A stretch of 64,000 nt of DNA from positions 925-64,924 of the forward strand of contig JAGVMN010000004.1 of assembly GCA_020053795.1 (NCBI GenBank). Reading direction: 5' to 3'. The translations under genes and the position numbers were made by a program. The DNA is from Bacteroidia bacterium (GTDB lineage: Bacteria > Bacteroidota > Bacteroidia > NS11-12g > UBA9320). This document shows positions 7,945 through 17,662 of this stretch, one piece after another (the stretch's first letter is position 1; every line of letters starts with the position of its first letter). The notes under the pieces are model-generated. The model was not told the origin of the DNA. It saw only the letters and a list, made by a program, of their open reading frames with translations, and did no database searches.

Positions 7945-8466
7945 TTATTTCTTTCGCTCCATTCTTAATCCTCGTTCCATTAGGAAATCATTTATGTCAA
8001 TGCATTTTACACCATTCTTAATAGCAACAGCAGGAATTTTGTTGTGTTTCGCTTTGTTCTCATTGGTTATCAGAACAGAGTTATGAACCTTACAATATCC
8101 GATTAGGTAAGGGTCAGCTTCTTCTTTTCCTTCCGCTTGCTTCTTCGCATCAAAAAATCCCGTACTGAATTCTTCATTTACAATTGGAATTGCAGCATTG
8201 ATACTTGCTCCGTCAGTTTTTACTACAAAATGTTTTTTCCATTTCTTAACCCAGTTTTTTAAAAAATCTTGTTTGCCTTCATAACTGTTTATTTCATCTT
8301 CAACAAAATCTATTGTTCTGAAAGTGCCTTGTGCGATCAAGTCTTCAATTTCATCCCAAATTGCTTTGAACACAGGGTTGTCATACTTGAACAAATATTC
8401 AAGATTGATTAGGCCGTTCGTGTCAATGACATAAATTGTCTGTCCAGGGGTGAAATCTAATTGCAT
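7945..8466 (-). CDS. DUF4411 family PIN-domain protein (putative toxin/nuclease)
   Basis: YVIDTN, V.DEI, EEADPYLIG and LITNE...KIPAV motifs, i.e. the acidic PIN active-site pattern. Confidence 0.85.
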   Translation of the reverse strand: MQLDFTPGQTIYVIDTNGLINLEYLFKYDNPVFKAIWDEIEDLIAQGTFRTIDFVEDEINSYEGKQDFLKNWVKKWKKHFVVKTDGASINAAIPIVNEEFSTGFFDAKKQAEGKEEADPYLIGYCKVHNSVLITNENKAKHNKIPAVAIKNGVKCIDINDFLMERGLRMERKK

Positions 8467-8468
8467 TA

Positions 8469-9617
8469 TCAGCCATTCAGTAGTTGACGGGTTTTCGAAA
8501 TGTAAGACAACTTAATACCTATAAAATCAGAGAGGTCTTTTAAATCAATTCTGTTTTGGTCAAAAGCCGAAAACGCTAGTGAGATATAGGTCCTGCCTTT
8601 TTCTTGAATGGCTTCTTTAGCAAGGTTTCTTCCTTCGGGAGTTTTGCTTCTCCCAAATGATGGTTTATTCCACACCTGATGTTTCTCATTGTAAAATGCC
8701 GCTGTGGTTAGCTTGTTTTCAAGCAAACTTCTGAGAATAGCTAAAGGCCCTGCATGAAAATAATTTCCAAGAGTAGTCAAATCTTTTAATCGCCAAATTT
8801 TATTACCTGCCAGTTTTTGTTCTTGCACAATATTCATTTGCAGGATTTCAGCAGAAGGAATTATTACTTCTGCTGAAAAAGCATTGCACCATTTTTCAAT
8901 TTCAATAGTTGATTTCTCCGATAAGTCGCACAAACCGCCTTCGTTCAAAATGATGTGTCCTAACTCATGAAACAGAGTAAATATTTTTGCTGTTGCAGGT
9001 TCACCACCTCTTTTGATACCGATAATTGGAATTGCTTCATCGGTCAAAGAAAATCCTCTCAACCTATCTTGCGTCAAACCCAACTGGAATACTGCAACGC
9101 CAAGCGATTCAACTTTTTCAATGTATGCTTCCAAAGCATGATTGATGTTCTTTATTTCTCTTAACTCGTCAAGATTTAAAAACTGGCGAAGTCTAATTGC
9201 AACCAATTGCGGTTGGTCTTTTATAGAAGCAAAAAAGCTGAACTTAGGAATTTCAATTCCAAATTCCTGTTTCAATTCAAAGAATGATTGTGATAAAGCA
9301 CGGGCTTTGCGAATTGCCATGATTGACTTTTCGTGAAAGTTGCCAAGGTCTTTTGAATCAATTGTTCGTCTGTCTTTCGATAATGGTTTTTCCTTTGGTG
9401 GTTCTTTCAGAAGGAGCGTTGCAATGGTTCGTTTGTATGCTTTTGAAAACTCCTTCAACTCGTCTAAGGTGATTGGCTTTTCGCCGTCTTCCAACTGTGC
9501 CATTCTTTTGACTGATACTCCTGTTTTTTCTGCTGCCTGGTTTCGGTTTATGGCAAGCGATTCCCTTGCCCAAACAAGAACTTTGTGATTAACTTCTATG
9601 TGAATATTGTCGGACAT
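8469..9617 (-). CDS. XRE-HTH plus ImmA/IrrE (DUF955) zinc metallopeptidase
   Basis: N-terminal VN..VLVWARES HTH region, then FTLFHELGH and EKWCNAFSAE. The likely start is MSDNIH at 9617. Confidence 0.9.
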   Translation of the reverse strand: MSDNIHIEVNHKVLVWARESLAINRNQAAEKTGVSVKRMAQLEDGEKPITLDELKEFSKAYKRTIATLLLKEPPKEKPLSKDRRTIDSKDLGNFHEKSIMAIRKARALSQSFFELKQEFGIEIPKFSFFASIKDQPQLVAIRLRQFLNLDELREIKNINHALEAYIEKVESLGVAVFQLGLTQDRLRGFSLTDEAIPIIGIKRGGEPATAKIFTLFHELGHIILNEGGLCDLSEKSTIEIEKWCNAFSAEVIIPSAEILQMNIVQEQKLAGNKIWRLKDLTTLGNYFHAGPLAILRSLLENKLTTAAFYNEKHQVWNKPSFGRSKTPEGRNLAKEAIQEKGRTYISLAFSAFDQNRIDLKDLSDFIGIKLSYISKTRQLLNG

Positions 9618-9715
9618 ATTTCTGTTCAAAGTTAGAAATATTTTCAAGTGTTTTCTATTCTTCAGTCACCAAAGTAATTTTCTCCTCACTCATGGCATAT
9701 TCCCATAGTTCAACT

Positions 9716-9825
9716 TTCTTTATTGTCGCTCTTATTTGTTCCAGTATAGTCTGGGTTTCTCTTGGAAACCCTGCTGTGTATTCATCAAGATCTTTGGCCG
9801 GAGTGGTCTTTATAAGGCAAAAATA
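9716..9825. repeat. Imperfect direct repeat, copy 2: truncated 5' fragment of the DUF1801 gene
   Basis: The minus strand encodes IKTTPAKDLDEYTAGFPRETQTILEQIRATIKK. The ATG is replaced by ATA and homology stops after KK. Confidence 0.85.
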
Positions 9826-9921
9826 CAATTCCTTAATTGCCAAGAAAGATTTGCATATTTGGAATTCAGATTAATACTTGACAAGTGAAAAACACCTGAA
9901 ACCTATAAAATTTTAAAACAC

Positions 9922-9957
9922 AAAAACCCCACCACCAACAAACAGGCAGCAGGGTTT
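9922..9957 (-). terminator. Intrinsic terminator after the vWA gene
   Basis: Minus-strand stem AACCCTGCTGCC...GGTGGTGGGGTT with G-U pairs, followed by a T-rich tail. Confidence 0.6.
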
Positions 9958-9982
9958 GTAAACCAACTTGAAAAACCCGAAT

Positions 9983-11239
9983 TTATTCTTTCACGGTACC
10001 TTTCAGTTCTATGCCTTTGCCGCCTGTTTGTTTCTTCATGGTGCTGTAAACCTTGTTGGAGAAACTGTTGGAACTGACATCTGATTCCGATGCTGTTTTG
10101 GTTTTGATGTACTCGTTTCGTTTTGATATATTTAGCTGCAATGCTGCCCGGGCAGAGTCGCGATCGGCTTTCATTTTTTGCAGATAGGCTGTCCTTTGGG
10201 CCACCGTCAAGGGTTGCAGGGTTTCTGATAAAAGCTCTTTGCGGATGGTATCAACTTTCACCACACCGTTGGCGTAGTCTGTCACCAGATCGTTTTTGAA
10301 ATAGACGTCTTTGGTCACACCCTTAGTGGTTTTGTACTCTGCACGGCTGGCATTTTCGCTGGATTTCCCTTTGCTGTAAATGTCGTTTGCCTGCACTTTG
10401 CTACTTTCTTTTGAGACTCTAATTGTGTACGTACCGTAATAAACCACGGTGTTGTCAATGGTGTTTTGCAATCGGGCAATGTCATCATCATAAGGAGTGG
10501 TTAGCACATAGCCGTTGGCATTTTGATCTACAGGAATATAATCCCCGCCGGTGATCATAGCCACTTCACGCCAAACTTGTTCGGCACCGGCACAGTTGCC
10601 CATTTTCAGGGTATTGATATAAATGCCTTTTTTCACCGCCTCGCGACAGGTGACCGGATATTTAACATCGTTTTGGTAATCCATATGTGGCGGACAATCA
10701 CCCACCTGAAACACCGCTTTGTAAACGGCGGTGTCCGCATACCACTGAAACTTATTGACGGCATCGAACAAAGCCTGATTGACACTTTCGGGCGAATCGC
10801 CGCCTCCGGTGGCCACCATGTCCATCAGTTTGCCATAAACAGAGTCTATGTCTTCTGTAAATTCAATTCTTTTGGTTACAAAGTCATCACCACGGTCGCG
10901 GTAAAACACCATCCCGATTTGTAATTCGGGTTTGGGATCGGCCTGAAGAAGGCTGCTGGCGATGCTCCAGATTTTTTGCTTGGCTGTGGCAATCAGTCCA
11001 CCCATGCTTCCGGTAACATCGAGGCAAAACACCAATTGGATGCGTTTGCTCTGCTCCAAAGTTGGTTGACCCTCAGAATTGAGATTGTTAAGATTTGGAT
11101 TTTGAGAAATAGGGGGTTGAAGTTGGTGAGGTTGAACGAGAATACTTTGGGGATGATTCCACTCCTTGTCGGGTTGTGCCGTTGTACTGCCCAGGCATGT
11201 CACACATACCCAAAGGCCAATGATTGTTGTTGCTTTCAT
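9983..11239 (-). CDS. Exported von Willebrand factor A (vWA) domain protein with a helical C-terminal region
   Basis: Signal peptide, MIDAS-like LVFCLDVTGSMG, GGGDSPES and VGDCPPH motifs. No T9SS CTD is apparent. Confidence 0.88.
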   Translation of the reverse strand: MKATTIIGLWVCVTCLGSTTAQPDKEWNHPQSILVQPHQLQPPISQNPNLNNLNSEGQPTLEQSKRIQLVFCLDVTGSMGGLIATAKQKIWSIASSLLQADPKPELQIGMVFYRDRGDDFVTKRIEFTEDIDSVYGKLMDMVATGGGDSPESVNQALFDAVNKFQWYADTAVYKAVFQVGDCPPHMDYQNDVKYPVTCREAVKKGIYINTLKMGNCAGAEQVWREVAMITGGDYIPVDQNANGYVLTTPYDDDIARLQNTIDNTVVYYGTYTIRVSKESSKVQANDIYSKGKSSENASRAEYKTTKGVTKDVYFKNDLVTDYANGVVKVDTIRKELLSETLQPLTVAQRTAYLQKMKADRDSARAALQLNISKRNEYIKTKTASESDVSSNSFSNKVYSTMKKQTGGKGIELKGTVKE

Positions 11240-11283
11240 AATTTTAGGATTTATTTTTTGCTTTAAGTTTTCACTCTATTGGC

Positions 11284-11371
11284 CCCTGAGTTTGTCGAAG
11301 GGCTCTTTTAATTTGAGCCGCGAAGCATCGCGGCTTTACTTTGGGTTTGTACCCTGACCGAAGTCGAAGGG
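11284..11371. repeat. REP-like intergenic cluster: two CCCTGA..GTCGAAGGG units flanking a hairpin
   Basis: ccctgagtttgtcgaaggg (11284-11302), agccgcga-agca-tcgcggct hairpin (11316-11335), ccctgaccgaagtcgaaggg (11352-11371). Confidence 0.7.
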
Positions 11372-12370
11372 TCACTTCTTATAGTAGTTCAAGTGAATTT
11401 TCTGTCCGTTGCTTTTCAGCATGGTACCACTTTGCATTACCTGTGTTTCTTGTTTGTCTTCGTCCTGCAGAAATTCGCTGAGAAAAGCCATGACCCTTGA
11501 TGCGGCAATGGCCACAACTGAACCATAAGTGATGGCATCAACGGCCGCAGATTTAATCAGTTGCGGAGACTGTTTGCGGAACATCTGGTTGGTGGCAAAC
11601 AAATCTGCACTGATGATGGTATCCCCTGTGACGGCTACAAAGCCTATATAATTGGAGTCTTCCAACATCAGTTTTTCATAGTGCTTCATATATTTGGCTA
11701 CTTCAGTATTCAGGGCATCGGAGTTTTGAAGGGCTGCATAGGTGCCGGAGGAAGTTTGTGATTTGTTTTTCTTAGTGGCATCGGCCACTTCTTCCCAAAC
11801 CTTGCCCTGGTTTTTATCAACGACGGCTTTCCTTCTAACCTGTCCGGTTGCGACTCCAATGGTACCGTTAAACTGGTATCCGCTGTTTTGTGGCGTCCAT
11901 CGGCCATGCTCCACACAAAAAACCGATACCTGCACTTTGCCACTCTTAGGTGGCAACATTACATCCTGCCCAATGACCCGGTCCTGCTTTCCGCCGGTAA
12001 CAACTTCCCCTGCTAAAATCATAATGGTGTCTTTAGAAATGTTTTCGATCTCCAATGTGTTGACGGTACCATCTCCCAATTCAGTAACCTTAATTTTTTT
12101 TGCTTTCAAAGCTTCCTGCAAACTGGTGTGATTGCCAATGCTTTTATACTCGTTTCTAAGGGTTTCGTTGGCACGCAGCATATAGATACGCAGGTTGCCG
12201 TAGGTGAAGCGGTCTTCCATTTTTTTGAAGTCGCTGTTTTCGTTCAGTGTGTATTTGCCGTTTTCCTGGCTGACAAAAGTTGGGTTGCCGACACTGATGT
12301 TTTGAAGGTTTAGTTGTGCCCTCGATGTTTCAAAGGCAAACAGTGCAATAATAAAAAGGTATTTTTTCAT
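11372..12370 (-). CDS. Exported ARPP-1/DUF6569-like protein
   Basis: Signal peptide MKKYLFIIALFAFETSRA-Q; motifs LQEAL, VNTLEIEN, AGEVVTGGKQDR, VFCVEHGRW, QGKVWEEV and ADLFAT typical of this family. Confidence 0.72.
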   Translation of the reverse strand: MKKYLFIIALFAFETSRAQLNLQNISVGNPTFVSQENGKYTLNENSDFKKMEDRFTYGNLRIYMLRANETLRNEYKSIGNHTSLQEALKAKKIKVTELGDGTVNTLEIENISKDTIMILAGEVVTGGKQDRVIGQDVMLPPKSGKVQVSVFCVEHGRWTPQNSGYQFNGTIGVATGQVRRKAVVDKNQGKVWEEVADATKKNKSQTSSGTYAALQNSDALNTEVAKYMKHYEKLMLEDSNYIGFVAVTGDTIISADLFATNQMFRKQSPQLIKSAAVDAITYGSVVAIAASRVMAFLSEFLQDEDKQETQVMQSGTMLKSNGQKIHLNYYKK

Positions 12371-12427
12371 GACGTTTTGTGTTAAATTCAATTCAAAGGT
12401 CTGGTGCCTTTTTTAACTATTTTTTTG

Positions 12428-12480
12428 AAATGAGTGAAACGCCGTGGCAAATGAGTGAATGCTTACCTTTTGCTTGTGAA
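12428..12480. promoter_or_regulatory. Putative LytTR binding array with 21-bp period
   Basis: AAATGAGTGAA at 12428 and 12449, plus a partial GTGAA at 12476 in exact register. It lies upstream of a GACCTTTG -7-like box on the minus strand (~12394-12401). Confidence 0.75.
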
Positions 12481-12519
12481 CAGGCATTATAGCCAAAAGA
12501 AAAACCCCGAATTCAGATT

Positions 12520-14499
12520 ATGGCATTTTTTCGCTGCTTATCTTTGCTTGAGTTTTTACAGGAAACATTGAAAATAACATTTGTCATAGTGTTCATTCTG
12601 ATTACCATTCAGGGGTTTTGCCAAACCAGTGGTGGTAGGGAAAATGTGACAAAAAAAGCCAAACAGGTAAGTTCTTCTACGCCTATGGAATTGGTGAACG
12701 AGGCCAACAAACGCTCGGAAACAGATGCTGCCAAAAGTATGGAACTTGCTACCACTGCTCTTGAAAGGAGTTTGAGTCAGAAGGATAAAAAGGGAGAATA
12801 TTATTCTTACAATACCCTCGGAACACTCTATTACAATATCGGCAACTGGGCCAAAGCGGTGCAATATTTCACGCTTGCCCGCAACGGTTTCACAAGCATC
12901 AAAGACGAAAAAGGAAAATCCTATTCCGAAAAGTATCTGGCTCTGGCTCTGGAAAAACAAAAGAACTATGGCGAGGCTCTAAAGGTAACATCTTCCGCAC
13001 CGAGTAGGGTAAGCAGTAAAGAAGAAGAAGTCAGAAGTAAGTATAATAAGGCCCGGCTAAAATCAAAAGCCGGTAAAGACAAAGAAGCCATTTCTGAATT
13101 GAAATCACTGGCAAGGGACACCACACTTTCTATTGAAAACAAAATTCAGATTTATAAGGAACTGGGAGATTTATACGTGGCAAGTAATGATACCGCTAGT
13201 GCTTTTAAAGCTTATGATGAGGTTTTGCAGGTAGAAAACGAAGGGACGTATCAGTTAAATTTATCCAAAACCGGAAAAGTGGGATATTTTGACGTGCTAA
13301 AAAAAGTGAGCGACCTTAACATCAAAAGCGGAAATGAAGCAGATAATTTCCTGCTTCAGAATACCATTCTGGCTCAGGGCTTGAAAAGCAAAGACCCTGA
13401 TCTGGTGCAGGCTGCCAACCTGAACATCGGCACCACGCTGATGAGTCAGGATCAGGAAATTAAAGCCATTCCCTTTTTATTTACGAGTGCAAGCATTGCC
13501 CGTAGCCGCAGCAATCCGGTCGAAGAGCAGAAAAGCGTGAAGGAACTGGCTCAGGCCTACGAAAATCTGGGGCAATACGACAAGGCGTTGGATGTTTACA
13601 AGCGATATGTGCAATTGTCGGATTCTTTTAAAATCCTGCAGGCCGGAAGTGAGGAAGCCGCTTTGGCTTTAAATGCGGAATTTCTGAAGCAGGAAGACCG
13701 AATACGGGGACTGATGGACAGTCAAAAGGAAAAAGAAGTCAGCATTAAAAGGCAAAGAAATATTCTCTGGACGTTGGGTGGTGGGCTCATGCTTTTTGTA
13801 TTGCTCACCTGGGCTTTGGTTCGGAACATTCGTCAAAAGCAAAAGGCCAATATGCTCATCAAACTGCAAAGTCTGAGAACACAGATGAATCCGCATTTCA
13901 TTTTTAACTCGCTGAACAGTGTCAATAATTTCATCGCCAAGAATGACGAACGCAGTGCCAACCGTTACTTGTCAGAGTTCAGCAAGCTGATGCGGACCGT
14001 CCTTAAAAACAGTGATCAGGACTTTGTGAGCCTGGCTTCTGAGATTCAAACATTGGGCATCTATCTTGAGCTGGAGCATTTCCGGTTCGGTGATAAATTC
14101 GAGTACCGCCTTGAAGTGGCCCCTGAAGTAGAGCCCGAGGCGGTGCAAATTCCCTCCATGCTCATACAACCCTATATCGAAAATGCGATATGGCACGGGC
14201 TTCGGTACAAAGAAGAAAAGGGCGTATTGGAAGTGAAGTTTTTTATTGAGGGCAAGAAGTTGTATTGCAGCATTTTTGATAACGGGATTGGCCGCAGGAA
14301 ATCGGCGGAACTGAAAACCGATCATCAAAAGATCTATCAGAGCACCGGAATAAAAAACACCAAAGAACGGATTGAAATACTGAACAAGCTGCACGGTACC
14401 TCACTTGGCATCACCATACAGGACATAGAGGAAGGCGAAGAAAAGGGGACATTGGTTAAGATTTCGCTGCCATACATTATGGAGGAGATAGTTGTATGA
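12520..14499 (+). CDS. TPR-domain LytS-type sensor histidine kinase
   Basis: N-terminal hydrophobic segment, TPR-like repeats, a TM helix, QMNPHFIFNSLN, IQPYIENAIWHG and DNGIG. The true start may lie slightly downstream. Confidence 0.92.
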   Translation: MAFFRCLSLLEFLQETLKITFVIVFILITIQGFCQTSGGRENVTKKAKQVSSSTPMELVNEANKRSETDAAKSMELATTALERSLSQKDKKGEYYSYNTLGTLYYNIGNWAKAVQYFTLARNGFTSIKDEKGKSYSEKYLALALEKQKNYGEALKVTSSAPSRVSSKEEEVRSKYNKARLKSKAGKDKEAISELKSLARDTTLSIENKIQIYKELGDLYVASNDTASAFKAYDEVLQVENEGTYQLNLSKTGKVGYFDVLKKVSDLNIKSGNEADNFLLQNTILAQGLKSKDPDLVQAANLNIGTTLMSQDQEIKAIPFLFTSASIARSRSNPVEEQKSVKELAQAYENLGQYDKALDVYKRYVQLSDSFKILQAGSEEAALALNAEFLKQEDRIRGLMDSQKEKEVSIKRQRNILWTLGGGLMLFVLLTWALVRNIRQKQKANMLIKLQSLRTQMNPHFIFNSLNSVNNFIAKNDERSANRYLSEFSKLMRTVLKNSDQDFVSLASEIQTLGIYLELEHFRFGDKFEYRLEVAPEVEPEAVQIPSMLIQPYIENAIWHGLRYKEEKGVLEVKFFIEGKKLYCSIFDNGIGRRKSAELKTDHQKIYQSTGIKNTKERIEILNKLHGTSLGITIQDIEEGEEKGTLVKISLPYIMEEIVV

Positions 14500-14572
14500 A
14501 GATTTTGACTGATCTGTTTTGTCACATAATATTTTTCGGTTATTCGATGTTTAGAAAAACTCTTTCAAGACC

Positions 14573-15439
14573 ATGATGAAAGCACATATTTCGACATTCT
14601 TTTTTGTTTTTACATTTCTGAATTCTGTCAATGGGAAACAATTTGAAAATGATAAAGGAAGTAATTCAGACTCTATTAAAATTCCCTTTTATTTTGGACT
14701 TAATGTTAATGGTCCAACTTTTATTCAGATTAAAAATTCAATGGACAGTATTGTATTTAATCATGAAGGCGATTGGAAGGATTGGGGCTCCCAGTATCAA
14801 AAGACTTTATTAAAGGGGAAGTATCGAATTTTCATAAAGGTCGATCAAAACAGCTTGAATACCTTGATTGCAGAAGAACATTTTGAAATAATTGGGAATG
14901 AAACGCTAATAGATGTTTCTGTAGTTTTAATTAGAGGAAGGACACCTTGTAAAGAACTAATAGTAACTAAATACTACGGTAATGAATTTGATATCAAGCT
15001 TAAGAGAATATGGAACCCACAATCCCAATTTGAAATGGATTCTTCCTTTCTTCCTGATTATGAAGTATTGAATTCATCTGATTCTTTGCTTTATGGAATC
15101 TATCATAGGTTTTCTTCATCAATGTCAATTAGCTGGGTTCAACTTCACTATATTACTTTTTTAAGGTATCAAAAATTTGAGAATGGTAATTGGTTGACTA
15201 TTTCCTGCAATGCCCCGAGAATTCAAATGGGACTCAAGCCAAATGAGAAAGGTTGTACACTGAAGGATATGCGACTTGATTGTAATACTAATAACTTTCA
15301 AAAAAAAATTAGATATCGTGTCATTTTTCAGTACGGAATTAATAATACTATTGTTAGAATTCCTGAAAAGAGGGATGAATCATTTACTTATATTGAACCT
15401 CATGTTTACCAAATATATGATGAATTTACAATCGAATAA
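14573..15439 (+). CDS. Hypothetical exported protein in an AT-rich gene inserted between the kinase and its regulator
   Basis: 288-aa ORF with a signal-like N-terminus. It is visibly more AT-rich than the flanking genes and has no recognised domain. Confidence 0.6.
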   Translation: MMKAHISTFFFVFTFLNSVNGKQFENDKGSNSDSIKIPFYFGLNVNGPTFIQIKNSMDSIVFNHEGDWKDWGSQYQKTLLKGKYRIFIKVDQNSLNTLIAEEHFEIIGNETLIDVSVVLIRGRTPCKELIVTKYYGNEFDIKLKRIWNPQSQFEMDSSFLPDYEVLNSSDSLLYGIYHRFSSSMSISWVQLHYITFLRYQKFENGNWLTISCNAPRIQMGLKPNEKGCTLKDMRLDCNTNNFQKKIRYRVIFQYGINNTIVRIPEKRDESFTYIEPHVYQIYDEFTIE

Positions 15440-15609
15440 TATTCGACCACAAGTATATTGTAATGTTGGTTTTTGGTTTGCAAATTTTCTTCTCCTAACT
15501 ACCATTGTTCCGGTTGGAAAGTTTTGTGTCCAAAGCGGCACTTAAATCGGCCTCTGATAAATAGCGAGGTGTGGTAAACGAAATTTAATAATAGTCTGAG
15601 TGCATAATT

Positions 15610-16362
15610 ATGAGCATTAAAACAATCACCGCCCTCATCGTTGACGACGAAGCTGCCGCCAGAGAAACACTGTTGGCTTATATCGGAAAATACTGTGAAG
15701 GTGTCAACGTGATTGGCGAGGCGGCAGACGTTCCCTCGGCTGTTGAGACGATCAACCGCCTGAAACCGGAATTGGTTTTTCTGGATGTGGAAATGCCTTT
15801 CGGCAACGCCTTCGATGTATTGGAAAATACAGCCGCTATTGGATTCGAGACCATCTTTATAACCGCCTACAGCGAATATGCTATCAACGCGTTTAACTTC
15901 AGTGCTGCCTATTATATCCTGAAACCGGTTGACATTGGCGAACTGATTAAAGCGGTGAACAAAGTGAGAACCTCCCTGAGTCAAAAATCAGTTCCGCGGG
16001 TTTCGCAGGTTTTGTATGAGAATATGCGGCATCCCGAAAACAAAAAATTGGTCTTGCCCACTACCACCGGGTTCGAAGTGGTGGCCATCAAAGACATTGT
16101 TCGCCTCAGCGGCAGCAGCAACTATACCGAGATATTCCTCAGCGACGGGAAAAAGAAAGTAGTCAGCAAGGTATTAAAATTCTTCGAAGAAATGCTTTCC
16201 GATCAAGGATTTATGCGGGTACACAAGAGTCATATCATCAACCTAGAACAAATAAAAAAATATCATAAGGGCAGGGGAGGGAGTTTAGAGTTGAGCGATG
16301 GTGTCGAGATAGAAGTTTCACCCAACAAGAAGCAAGAGTTGCTTGGGCATTTCGGGGGTTGA
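15610..16362 (+). CDS. LytTR family response regulator
   Basis: IVDDE, LVFLDVEMP and YILKP receiver motifs; FMRVHKSHIINL LytTR domain. Confidence 0.95.
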   Translation: MSIKTITALIVDDEAAARETLLAYIGKYCEGVNVIGEAADVPSAVETINRLKPELVFLDVEMPFGNAFDVLENTAAIGFETIFITAYSEYAINAFNFSAAYYILKPVDIGELIKAVNKVRTSLSQKSVPRVSQVLYENMRHPENKKLVLPTTTGFEVVAIKDIVRLSGSSNYTEIFLSDGKKKVVSKVLKFFEEMLSDQGFMRVHKSHIINLEQIKKYHKGRGGSLELSDGVEIEVSPNKKQELLGHFGG

Positions 16363-16489
16363 TCAATCAATTGAATTTTGATTTCGTTTTCAATCATTTT
16401 GATTCTTATTTCCATAGTAAGAACAACTTAGGTTTAAGTTCTTTGTTAAATGCTTCGAACACATTATCATCGCTAAAAAAGATATCGCC

Positions 16490-17662
16490 ATGAAAAAACA
16501 ATTACTCATTCTTTCAGTCATTTTATCACCCGGTTTGCTGAAGGCTCAAATCACCCTGACCCAGGCAAATGCACCTACTGTGTCTATATTGACTACGAGT
16601 GACACAGCAAATTCGGTCAAATTATTGGCAACCTATCCCGATTTGTCGGCCAAGACAAATGCCACCTGGGACATGACATTGGTTAAGGACTCATTATTGT
16701 TTTCAACATTTAATGGAGCCATTACAAGTGCTGTTTTCCCAAATGCGACCTTTACAATTAAAAAGGAGTATTCATTTGCAGGTTCGTTGAAGTATTTCAC
16801 CCAGGCAATGTTGGCGGTAACAGCCAACGGCGTTGTTCAGTATGGGGAGAGCATCAATCGTCAGGCGATTTCGCTGGCGGCAGTGAGCGGCGGAGCGAAT
16901 GATTCATTAATTTTTCCAAAACAGGATGTCATTTTTTCCGCTGACAAGGTAGAAATAAAATACCCTTGCGGCATGGGTACCACCTGGGTTTCTTCACCCA
17001 AATTTACCACCAATTTTGGTATTACAATAGCTAGTTTGGGTTTGAACAAAACTAATGGTAAAAGACAAAGTGAATTGACTGTAACAAATACAGTTGTTGG
17101 TTGGGGAAAAATGAGGGTAAATGACAAAGGGGGTAACCCGACGGAGTATATGGATGTGTTGCAGTTGCAGATTGAAAATTCTATTAAAGACAGTTTCTTT
17201 TTAGCCGGAAAACCTGCACCAACAGCACTTTTGAATGCATTTGGATTGACACAGGGGCAAGTCTCAAAGTCCTACGAAAGGCAATTTCTCCGCAAAGGTG
17301 AATTCAGGCCATTGGTAGAAATTTCTTATACGGATAATACGTATAGCAAGAAGAACTTCTGTGAAGTTCACAAACAACGGTTTCAGGCTGCTGCCGGTAC
17401 AACGGATGTAACCACAAATCATTTTGAGGTTTACCCGAATCCGGTAACCGATTATTCTTTTATGATCGGTGGTGATGATTTAAAGAAGGGAAACTTGAAA
17501 TTTATTCTCCTCAATTCTCTCGGACAGGAAGTAATTGGTGCCGAAGTCCCTTCGAATGGTGAGGTGAATCTGTCAGAGTCCATTTCTTCCGGGCTGTATC
17601 AGCTTCAGTTAATGGCGGATGATCAGGTTTTGGGTGTGAAGAAAATTCATATTATCAACTAA
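16490..17662 (+). CDS. T9SS type A sorting domain-containing protein
   Basis: Signal peptide ending LKA-Q; C-terminal VYPNP...NSLGQ...SGLYQL...KKI domain. Confidence 0.85.
   Translation: MKKQLLILSVILSPGLLKAQITLTQANAPTVSILTTSDTANSVKLLATYPDLSAKTNATWDMTLVKDSLLFSTFNGAITSAVFPNATFTIKKEYSFAGSLKYFTQAMLAVTANGVVQYGESINRQAISLAAVSGGANDSLIFPKQDVIFSADKVEIKYPCGMGTTWVSSPKFTTNFGITIASLGLNKTNGKRQSELTVTNTVVGWGKMRVNDKGGNPTEYMDVLQLQIENSIKDSFFLAGKPAPTALLNAFGLTQGQVSKSYERQFLRKGEFRPLVEISYTDNTYSKKNFCEVHKQRFQAAAGTTDVTTNHFEVYPNPVTDYSFMIGGDDLKKGNLKFILLNSLGQEVIGAEVPSNGEVNLSESISSGLYQLQLMADDQVLGVKKIHIIN

Follow-up and report, generated by a model that had tools for sequence, protein, structure and literature searches.

A predicted TPR-kinase/LytTR regulon of exported vWA and ARPP-1 proteins in Bacteroidia, with a proposed role in envelope stress

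Introduction

Does a sensor kinase that stands back to back with genes for exported proteins control those genes, and what would such a circuit be for? The question is raised by a locus in a 64,000-nucleotide stretch of DNA from a Bacteroidia bacterium (GenBank assembly GCA_020053795.1, contig JAGVMN010000004.1, positions 925 to 64,924 of the forward strand; hereafter the window, with positions counted from its first nucleotide). Here a histidine kinase with a tetratricopeptide repeat (TPR) sensor and a LytTR response regulator lie divergently from a minus-strand operon for two exported proteins, one with an ARPP-1 (DUF6569) domain and the other with a von Willebrand factor A (vWA) domain. Exported ARPP-1/DUF6569 proteins and vWA proteins of the PF25106 type are abundant families without known function, and envelope-stress signalling has received much less attention in Bacteroidia than in E. 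coli or Bacillus.

An initial annotation, made from the sequence alone, had read the locus as a self-contained four-gene circuit and had named no characterised function for an exported ARPP-1-like protein or for the arrangement. The literature bears this out: our search of the main texts of articles found neither a description of this arrangement nor a published function for an exported ARPP, and no paper naming the DUF6569 family turned up. The locus is a conserved, uncharacterised regulon in which a LytTR operator beside a divergent target operon is of a known kind and the combination of sensor and outputs is new. The explanation that we prefer, and consider moderately likely as a whole, is a two-component regulon of exported proteins whose most likely role is an envelope-stress response. 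We hold the regulatory wiring with high confidence, whereas we put the envelope-stress role itself slightly short of an even chance.

Results

A TPR-sensor kinase and a LytTR regulator face an operon of two exported proteins

The layout was drawn from an open reading frame (ORF) listing together with Pfam and NCBIfam scans of eight proteins spanning 7945-17662. The kinase (12520-14499, plus strand; 659 aa) matches PF06580 above the cut-off (82 bits, 3.7e-23), with an NPHF histidine motif visible and an ATPase region following. Hydropathy analysis gave membrane segments at residues 16-34 and 415-433, and because these bracket the TPR matches, which fall within residues 94-368, the sensor is extracytoplasmic, in the periplasm. 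The regulator (15610-16362, plus strand) combines a receiver domain containing D59 (Response_reg, 57.8 bits, 1.5e-15) with a LytTR domain (55.7 bits, 6.2e-15), both above their cut-offs, so that the kinase and regulator types proposed initially are upheld by domain scans and hydropathy. It lies below every NCBIfam equivalog cut-off, its best match being BtsR (5.2e-32; 111.1 bits against a cut-off of 246) and its score against LytR being 90.3 bits (cut-off 375). Orthologues of the kinase, with E-values from 1e-69 to 3e-283, are present in 24 of 24 related loci examined.

The initial annotation placed the regulator after the kinase. Its gene is indeed there with both domains intact, but a 288-aa ORF lying in between (14573-15439, plus strand) had been overlooked. 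This ORF has a signal-peptide-like N-terminus, belongs to no assigned family and gave zero matches in Pfam or NCBIfam; its best score in the ESM Atlas, 0.84, was under the useful range. It is a member of a real small family of 14 representative clusters (E <= 1e-10), all of about 280-300 aa. Since it is AT-rich (GC content 0.308) and no homologue was found in the related loci L002-L081, we read it as a later insertion that probably lies outside the ancestral module. The GC content of the ARPP, vWA, kinase and regulator genes is 0.44-0.46, against 0.40 for the window.

On the opposite strand, the ARPP-1 gene (11372-12370, minus strand; PF20208, 1.5e-54) precedes the gene for the 418-aa vWA protein (9983-11239, minus strand; PF25106 VWA_4, 6.7e-11). 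The ARPP ORF opens with a TTG at 12391; the likely start is the ATG at 12370, which relatives use. An intrinsic terminator (9924-9957, read from 9957 to 9924 on the minus strand) with a 13-bp stem (6 GC) and a T-run closes the operon 26 nt past the vWA stop codon. The terminated ARPP-vWA operon of the initial annotation is thus confirmed. The two genes are separated by a structured 132-nt spacer (11240-11371, minus strand) with a predicted RNA fold of -33.7 kcal/mol (z = -3.18 against 200 shuffles), in which the word CCCUUCGAC is repeated and an 8-bp GC hairpin occurs without a T-run. The spacer may be a processing or stabilising element; Rfam gave zero matches across 9800-16500.

The shared promoter contains a conserved direct-repeat operator

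The initial annotation described a shared promoter region of about 150 bp, and its length is in fact 149 bp if ARPP starts at the ATG and 128 bp if it starts at the TTG. Within it, on the ARPP strand, the 11-bp word TTCACTCATTT occurs twice without mismatch as a direct repeat, at 12449-12459 and 12428-12438 (21-bp period). A third, partial TTCAC half-site lies in phase at 12471-12480, giving a predicted operator at 12428-12480 (minus strand). When up to 3 mismatches were allowed, the operator matched once in the window against 0.01 matches expected, and it is the sole perfect match in the 2.3-Mb assembly. Another operator-like site in the assembly (C58, 3 mismatches) is inside an ORF for a 649-aa membrane protein and was taken as chance.

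In 24 promoter regions beside orthologous kinases we then looked for pairs of TTCACTCATT copies spaced 20-22 bp apart and scored them. In all 24 the best pair had a spacing of 21 bp and was oriented toward the target gene. A score of at least 14 out of 20 was reached by 20 of the 24 promoters and by 47 of 2975 segments of 170 bp drawn at random from these loci, and scores in reverse orientation stayed at 13 or below. Half-sites come in two flavours, TTCACTCATT and TTCACCAAGT. In locus L002, where genes are inserted between the kinase and ARPP genes, the perfect repeat remains beside ARPP. Alignment of the four closest promoters (those of the window, L002, L003 and L004) revealed the third half-site, TTYAC, in phase 21 bp further upstream, and a CTTTGAA box invariant in all four (12392-12400, minus strand, in the window). 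The box lies some 29 nt past the last repeat, with 20-25 nt between it and the start codon. By the consensus TAnnTTTG, we take this box to be the Bacteroidota -7-type element of the ARPP operon.

LytTR sites typically consist of 9-bp repeats with a 12-bp spacer. The repeat arrangement found here has the pattern of a LytTR operator, and we infer that the regulator binds it; a direct-repeat site for the regulator close to the ARPP promoter, as the initial annotation anticipated, is present and kept in most of the orthologous promoters. The LytTR regulator AgrA, for comparison, binds direct-repeat pairs in the divergent agr intergenic region (PMC4227749).

Might the kinase/regulator pair and the ARPP-vWA operon simply be unrelated neighbours? 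Paralogues of TPR kinases with LytTR regulators are many, with 11 to 60 first-look candidates per Bacteroidota genome, and some adjacency is therefore expected by chance. Against this, the adjacency recurs in at least 24 other genomes from several families, and the motif, spacing and orientation of the operator are all conserved. We regard chance as exceedingly improbable.

The conserved core is a kinase and regulator facing a vWA gene

From a collection with one genome per species we retrieved the 80 best ARPP loci and searched their ORFs with the window proteins. In each of the ten closest (43-66% identity; L002-L004, L006-L010, L012 and L022) the orthologous TPR kinase is present and divergent. 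The LytTR regulator is found in nine of them, its place in L012 falling off the contig, and a vWA gene adjoins ARPP in eight, in either order. In a quick maximum-likelihood tree of ARPP proteins, from which six P-id rows were left out, nine of the ten kinase-linked ARPPs form one clade (SH-aLRT 89) with that of L012 nearby, and ARPPs linked to WYL regulators sit in a separate, distant clade. The linkage of vWA and ARPP genes to a TPR kinase and LytTR regulator, on which the initial proposal depended, accordingly recurs in related loci.

In the closest relative, L002 (3621-6493 and 9527-10875), ORFs of 89 and 85 aa and a 755-aa protein with a type IX secretion system (T9SS) tail are inserted between the kinase and ARPP genes. 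Its orthologue of the window's vWA gene is broken into ORFs of 151 and 280 aa, for which a frameshift or an assembly error may be responsible, and its operon further includes a second type of vWA gene, a dioxygenase-like gene and a gene weakly similar to SIMPL.

Further evidence on the core came from 401 Bacteroidota genomes, evenly drawn from the phylum, in which ARPP-1 occurs in 18 and the vWA family in 48, the window's genome counted. In 6 of 20 vWA loci from this sample the same kinase and regulator are divergent from the vWA gene and ARPP is absent. When the regulator was used as query, the 13 best non-self matches (E 4e-81 to 7e-67) were all within 6 kb of a vWA match and none of the next 16 (1e-65 to 8e-56) was near one, a split that was drawn after the ranking had been seen, at E-values without a clear gap, and is descriptive only. 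One of the 13, L207 (G107:C1:891000-903500), is a decayed module with a 206-aa vWA fragment, a kinase cut to 373 aa and unrelated genes between them.

These regulator and vWA surveys indicate that the conserved core is the kinase/regulator pair facing vWA, with ARPP joining in one branch. The kinase, regulator, operator and exported vWA gene travel together across Bacteroidia, and ARPP, SIMPL/DUF541 and YkuD genes are variable additions to this core. The notion of a self-contained four-gene module therefore survives in part: the two-component genes and exported genes are a conserved unit, but the set of four is not fixed.

The genes co-directional with the operator in orthologous loci make up a changing set of exported proteins. 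A vWA gene is among them in 21 of 25 loci, window included, a SIMPL/DUF541 gene in nine (one being the weak match in L002) and a YkuD_2 L,D-transpeptidase gene in three; a beta-lactamase-fold protein, DUF4139/4140, DUF4349 and a second, classical vWA also occur. Taken together these neighbours suggest an envelope theme. SIMPL is the sole target in L209 and L210. Neither SIMPL (PF04402) nor a second vWA gene, sought with the type-2 protein described below, was found elsewhere in the window's own assembly, which is 74% complete.

An unrelated two-component system faces the same families in another phylum

A further 80 metagenome loci (L122-L201), on contigs that are probably proteobacterial, contain the vWA type found in the window. 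In 58 of these the vWA gene follows one for a membrane protein of about 190 aa with three transmembrane (TM) segments and no Pfam match, and 52 of those contigs additionally encode a PspA/IM30 homologue (PF04012, 4e-20). The operon faces a HisKA kinase and an OmpR-type regulator in 38 of the 80. In L145 (2556-8098), for example, genes for a PspA/IM30-like protein (178 aa), the TM protein of about 190 aa and the vWA protein are divergent from genes for an OmpR-type regulator and a HisKA kinase of about 710 aa, whose large periplasmic domain has no Pfam match. In the Pseudomonadota locus L039 (3785-7900), the same HisKA/OmpR family (~1e-82) faces an exported ARPP rather than PspA-TM-vWA. No vWA gene was found in the L039 genome, a weak negative that was obtained with one query.

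A shared sensor fold was considered and rejected, since hhalign, run on profiles of the TPR sensor and of the sensor in the PspA-vWA-linked kinases, returned a probability of 0.1%. Two unrelated two-component systems in two phyla are thus each coupled to vWA or ARPP, and this is our main argument that both proteins are outputs of envelope-monitoring systems. The link to PspA is in turn the main argument for a role in membrane or envelope stress.

The same observations bear on a second possibility, which can coexist with the first. The initial annotation proposed that a protein ligand in the periplasm induces the two proteins, possibly with feedback on the TPR sensor. In such a model the induced vWA protein, ARPP or both might attach to the TPR domain in the periplasm and so adjust kinase activity or deliver the ligand, by analogy with CpxP and CpxA. 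TPR arrays and domains with a metal-ion-dependent adhesion site (MIDAS) are protein or peptide binders, the divergent placement beside the kinase is kept across Bacteroidia, and the vWA family faces a two-component system in another phylum too. Yet the sensors paired with vWA or ARPP are unrelated, so that a specific interface between sensor and vWA would need two origins, and the targets (vWA, ARPP, or SIMPL by itself) are interchangeable, as expected of outputs. The unrelated sensors seem to fit vWA and ARPP better as outputs than as sensor-specific partners. Interchangeable targets and unrelated sensors make feedback less likely as the main function, and overall we judge it unlikely.

The vWA protein has a conserved MIDAS motif and a helical C-terminal domain

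The vWA domain scores 42.5 bits against PF25106 (cut-off 27). Its MIDAS, formed by D74-x-T76-x-S78, D148 and D181, is invariant in 26 relatives of the same type, in keeping with the MIDAS-bearing protein of the initial annotation; the motif is a DxTxS variant of DxSxS in which the metal-site residues are kept. The family comprises two subtypes that are homologous over their full length. Type 1, to which the window's protein belongs, has the motifs DxTGS and GGGDxPE, and type 2 is lipoprotein-like with a canonical DTSNS; L002 carries both. In the AlphaFold model the pLDDT (predicted local distance difference test) is 83.8, with residues 21-60 below 50. The protein consists of an N-terminal signal peptide, assigned by eye, a disordered linker, the vWA/MIDAS domain at about 66-243 and a conserved helical C-terminal domain at about 251-406. 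Foldseek returned only generic vWA folds, integrin beta I-like structures and BatB 3ibs (E 3.5e-7), at a probability of 1.00. Prediction of a complex between ARPP (20-332) and vWA (61-418), made with alignments, gave a score of 0.00 and a mark of 0.32 and weighs neither way.

Both exported proteins have hydrophobic N-termini that end in A-Q: that of vWA ends TTAQ, and the A-Q of ARPP is invariant in 16 of 16 relatives. Read by eye, these match the export signals proposed initially. The same annotation had seen no T9SS tail on either protein, and Pfam and NCBIfam scans likewise found no T9SS C-terminal domain (PF18962 or TIGR04183) in ARPP or vWA. A positive control for these scans was at hand in a 390-aa neighbour (16490-17662, plus strand), which matched both models (PF18962, 4.9e-6; TIGR04183, 2.7e-6). 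Its gene lies directly 3' of the regulator, and no operator-like site was found upstream of it.

Lacking a T9SS tail, ARPP and vWA are probably confined to the periplasm or its membranes. This speaks to another explanation, in which the kinase responds to a peptide, protein or polymer from outside, vWA is an adhesin or captures the ligand, and the task of ARPP is to process a glycan. Adhesion is a frequent function of vWA domains, ARPP is followed by a GH18 gene in L007, PorP/SprF is convergent in L012, L094 and L100, and the T9SS-tailed protein follows the regulator in the window. Neither SusC/SusD nor transporters are conserved in the unit, however, a single MFS gene in L009 being non-recurrent, and the link to PspA in other phyla points to membrane stress instead. 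Such a surface-binding or nutrient response appears improbable to us.

The exported ARPP-1 protein is a putative enzyme

The ARPP protein, whose relatives carry the name 'DUF6569 family' in public sources, matches PF20208 at 185.8 bits (cut-off 27) over profile positions 6-277 of 297. Across 64 diverse sequences, that of the window among them, ten residues never vary: G121, G126, Q129, R131, C152, E154, R157, W158, Q188 and W192. The model is confident (pLDDT 94.4), but no relative of solved structure was found: Foldseek against the PDB gave a best E of 0.09, a sequence profile against the PDB a best E of 0.33, and VIA-align over 48,161 chains a best Z of 5.0 to a de novo designed protein, which is no usable relative. 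Iyer, Burroughs, Anantharaman and Aravind (2022) proposed that ARPP is an enzyme acting on sugar moieties, a point in favour of glycan processing as above, and described one exported pairing, of ARPP with a PF01522 deacetylase, as well as an accessory chaperone role for vWA proteins (PMC9503650). The invariant Cys and Gln found here agree with their description of the domain.

ARPP was defined in that work in predicted antiviral, ARG-centred ADP-ribose systems, in which the vWA proteins act as chaperones, and the locus might thus be part of an anti-phage or conflict system within a defence island. Directly downstream of the vWA terminator, at 7945-9647 on the minus strand, lie genes for a 392-aa IrrE/M78 helix-turn-helix (HTH) protein and then a 173-aa DUF4411 protein. 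The M78-HTH protein matches RmrA models in PADLOC (best 1.5e-14), and by its domains the pair may be toxin-antitoxin-like or defence-like. WYL-ARPP pairs also exist in other Bacteroidota.

Several observations stand against defence. Both proteins carry export signals; there is no ARG, phosphatase, Nudix, nuclease or WYL protein among the eight that we scanned. ARPP, vWA and the 288-aa ORF have no PADLOC match, and the kinase and regulator have only weak generic TPR or receiver-region matches there. The M78/DUF4411 pair is missing from orthologous loci, the WYL-linked ARPPs belong to their distant clade, and control by a membrane two-component system through a conserved operator is foreign to ARG systems. 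The locus therefore shares with the ARG-centred systems (PMC9503650) the ARPP domain with its invariant Cys and Gln, and differs from them, as far as they are described there, in lacking ARG, phosphatase, HIRAN and WYL partners, in exporting ARPP, in the family of its vWA protein and in its two-component control. A defence function is very unlikely on these grounds.

Other ARPP loci have contexts of their own. An HTH-WYL-WCX regulator is divergent from ARPP in four Bacteroidota loci (L104, L105, L106 and L109), matching the published context. In L027 (5993-7861) and L111 (5930-7840) an N-terminal LPP20 lipoprotein domain (PF02169) is fused to ARPP-1 in proteins of about 620-640 aa. Acidobacteriota loci (L040-L078) have a conserved downstream trio of 213, 311 and 259 aa without Pfam match, in 9-13 loci, and a further set of 4-5 loci has a sigma-70-like and zf-HC2 anti-sigma pair.

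Discussion

The evidence above favours a two-component regulon of exported proteins. In the scheme that we propose, a periplasmic cue would lead the kinase to phosphorylate the regulator at D59, and regulator dimers would then switch on the ARPP-vWA operon from the repeats, with the transcript stopping at the terminator. Both proteins would be exported to the periplasm, where they may act in stress or maintenance of the envelope, whether periplasm or cell wall. The vWA protein would be a metal-dependent binder, and ARPP, presumably added in one lineage, an enzyme whose invariant Cys, Gln, Arg and Glu serve catalysis.

A number of observations weigh against this explanation or narrow it. Both this kinase and an adjacent vWA gene are missing from the other 70 of the 80 ARPP loci, which belong to Bacteroidota, Acidobacteriota and further phyla, and in the 401-genome sample ARPP lies beside vWA in 0 of 17 other ARPP genomes. 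Since ARPP was the query by which loci L002-L022 were obtained, the share of kinase loci that contain it is biased upward, and the division of regulator matches by distance from vWA was made after the fact. ARPP or the TPR kinase accompanies the type-1 vWA gene in 0 of the 80 metagenome loci, and conversely no PspA/IM30 homologue was found at the window locus or at the Bacteroidota loci. The operator is predicted from conservation and the export of ARPP and vWA from N-termini read by eye; with no relative of solved structure, the chemistry of ARPP is a guess. The envelope-stress reading, finally, leans on neighbours that for the most part are uncharacterised themselves.

Known LytTR systems provide the closest precedent for the wiring. 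AgrC/AgrA, BtsS/BtsR, YpdA/YpdB, LytS/LytR and ComD/ComE likewise use a LytTR regulator, direct repeats by a nearby and often divergent promoter, and a small dedicated regulon. In contrast to the multi-TM input domains of LytS (5TMR) or AgrC, the kinase here has two TM segments and a periplasmic TPR sensor, and where those systems control holin-like proteins, transporters or peptide pheromones the outputs here are exported vWA, ARPP and SIMPL proteins. The operator consensus TTCACTCATT was derived in the present analysis and not taken from known LytTR systems. FimS of Porphyromonas gingivalis, a kinase of a different class whose TPR sensor is likewise periplasmic, works with a non-LytTR partner in the control of fimbriae. 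The FimS/FimR system resembles ours as a Bacteroidota sensor kinase with periplasmic TPR repeats, although our kinase matches the NCBIfam model HK_Porph_FimS weakly (1.1e-4), its 20.6 bits lying far under the cut-off of 600.

Parallels to envelope-stress systems are found in organisation rather than in families. CpxA/CpxR with a divergent cpxP and LiaFSR with liaIH are envelope-stress two-component systems in which, as here, the two-component genes adjoin a small target operon of envelope-acting proteins. The vWA operon outside Bacteroidota resembles liaIH in starting with a PspA/IM30 homologue and a membrane protein. The kinase and regulator families differ from those of Cpx and Lia, however, and the Bacteroidota loci have no homologues of PspA, CpxP or Spy. 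The Lia system has been described elsewhere (PMC11237479, PMC9239133), and within the sources that we covered vWA and ARPP are not known members of the Cpx, Lia or Psp regulons. The BatA-BatE proteins of the Bacteroides aerotolerance operon are similar in being exported or membrane vWA proteins with TPR partners, whereas the present locus has no MoxR ATPase or DUF58 gene, its TPR is the sensor of a kinase, and its vWA protein is of the PF25106 family with a helical C-terminal domain of its own.

A broader proposition, which we consider doubtful but worth stating, is that PF25106-type vWA proteins with their helical tail, exported ARPP-1 and SIMPL/DUF541 are widespread, unrecognised periplasmic effectors against envelope damage that have been wired independently to unrelated systems, namely TPR kinase/LytTR pairs in Bacteroidota and HisKA/OmpR pairs in Proteobacteria-like genomes, where vWA occurs with a PspA homologue. 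ARPP would then be a new kind of enzyme that depends on its Cys and has a glycan of the envelope, for instance peptidoglycan or LPS, as its substrate.

Neither vWA nor von Willebrand is mentioned in the main text of two surveys of the phage-shock protein (PSP) system. PspA-vWA operons under an unrelated two-component system tie this vWA family to the phage-shock world, a link that is absent from those main texts. ARPP, known from antiviral ADP-ribose systems, is here also exported and probably envelope-related. Because ARPP and vWA are accompanied by a sensor and regulator of their own and by a precisely predicted operator, the inducing signal should be findable with a simple reporter, and a cultured carrier of the full version with ARPP exists in Chryseolinea lacunae Jin1 (L008). 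For the Bacteroidia, the regulon may represent a new envelope-stress pathway that is conserved across the class.

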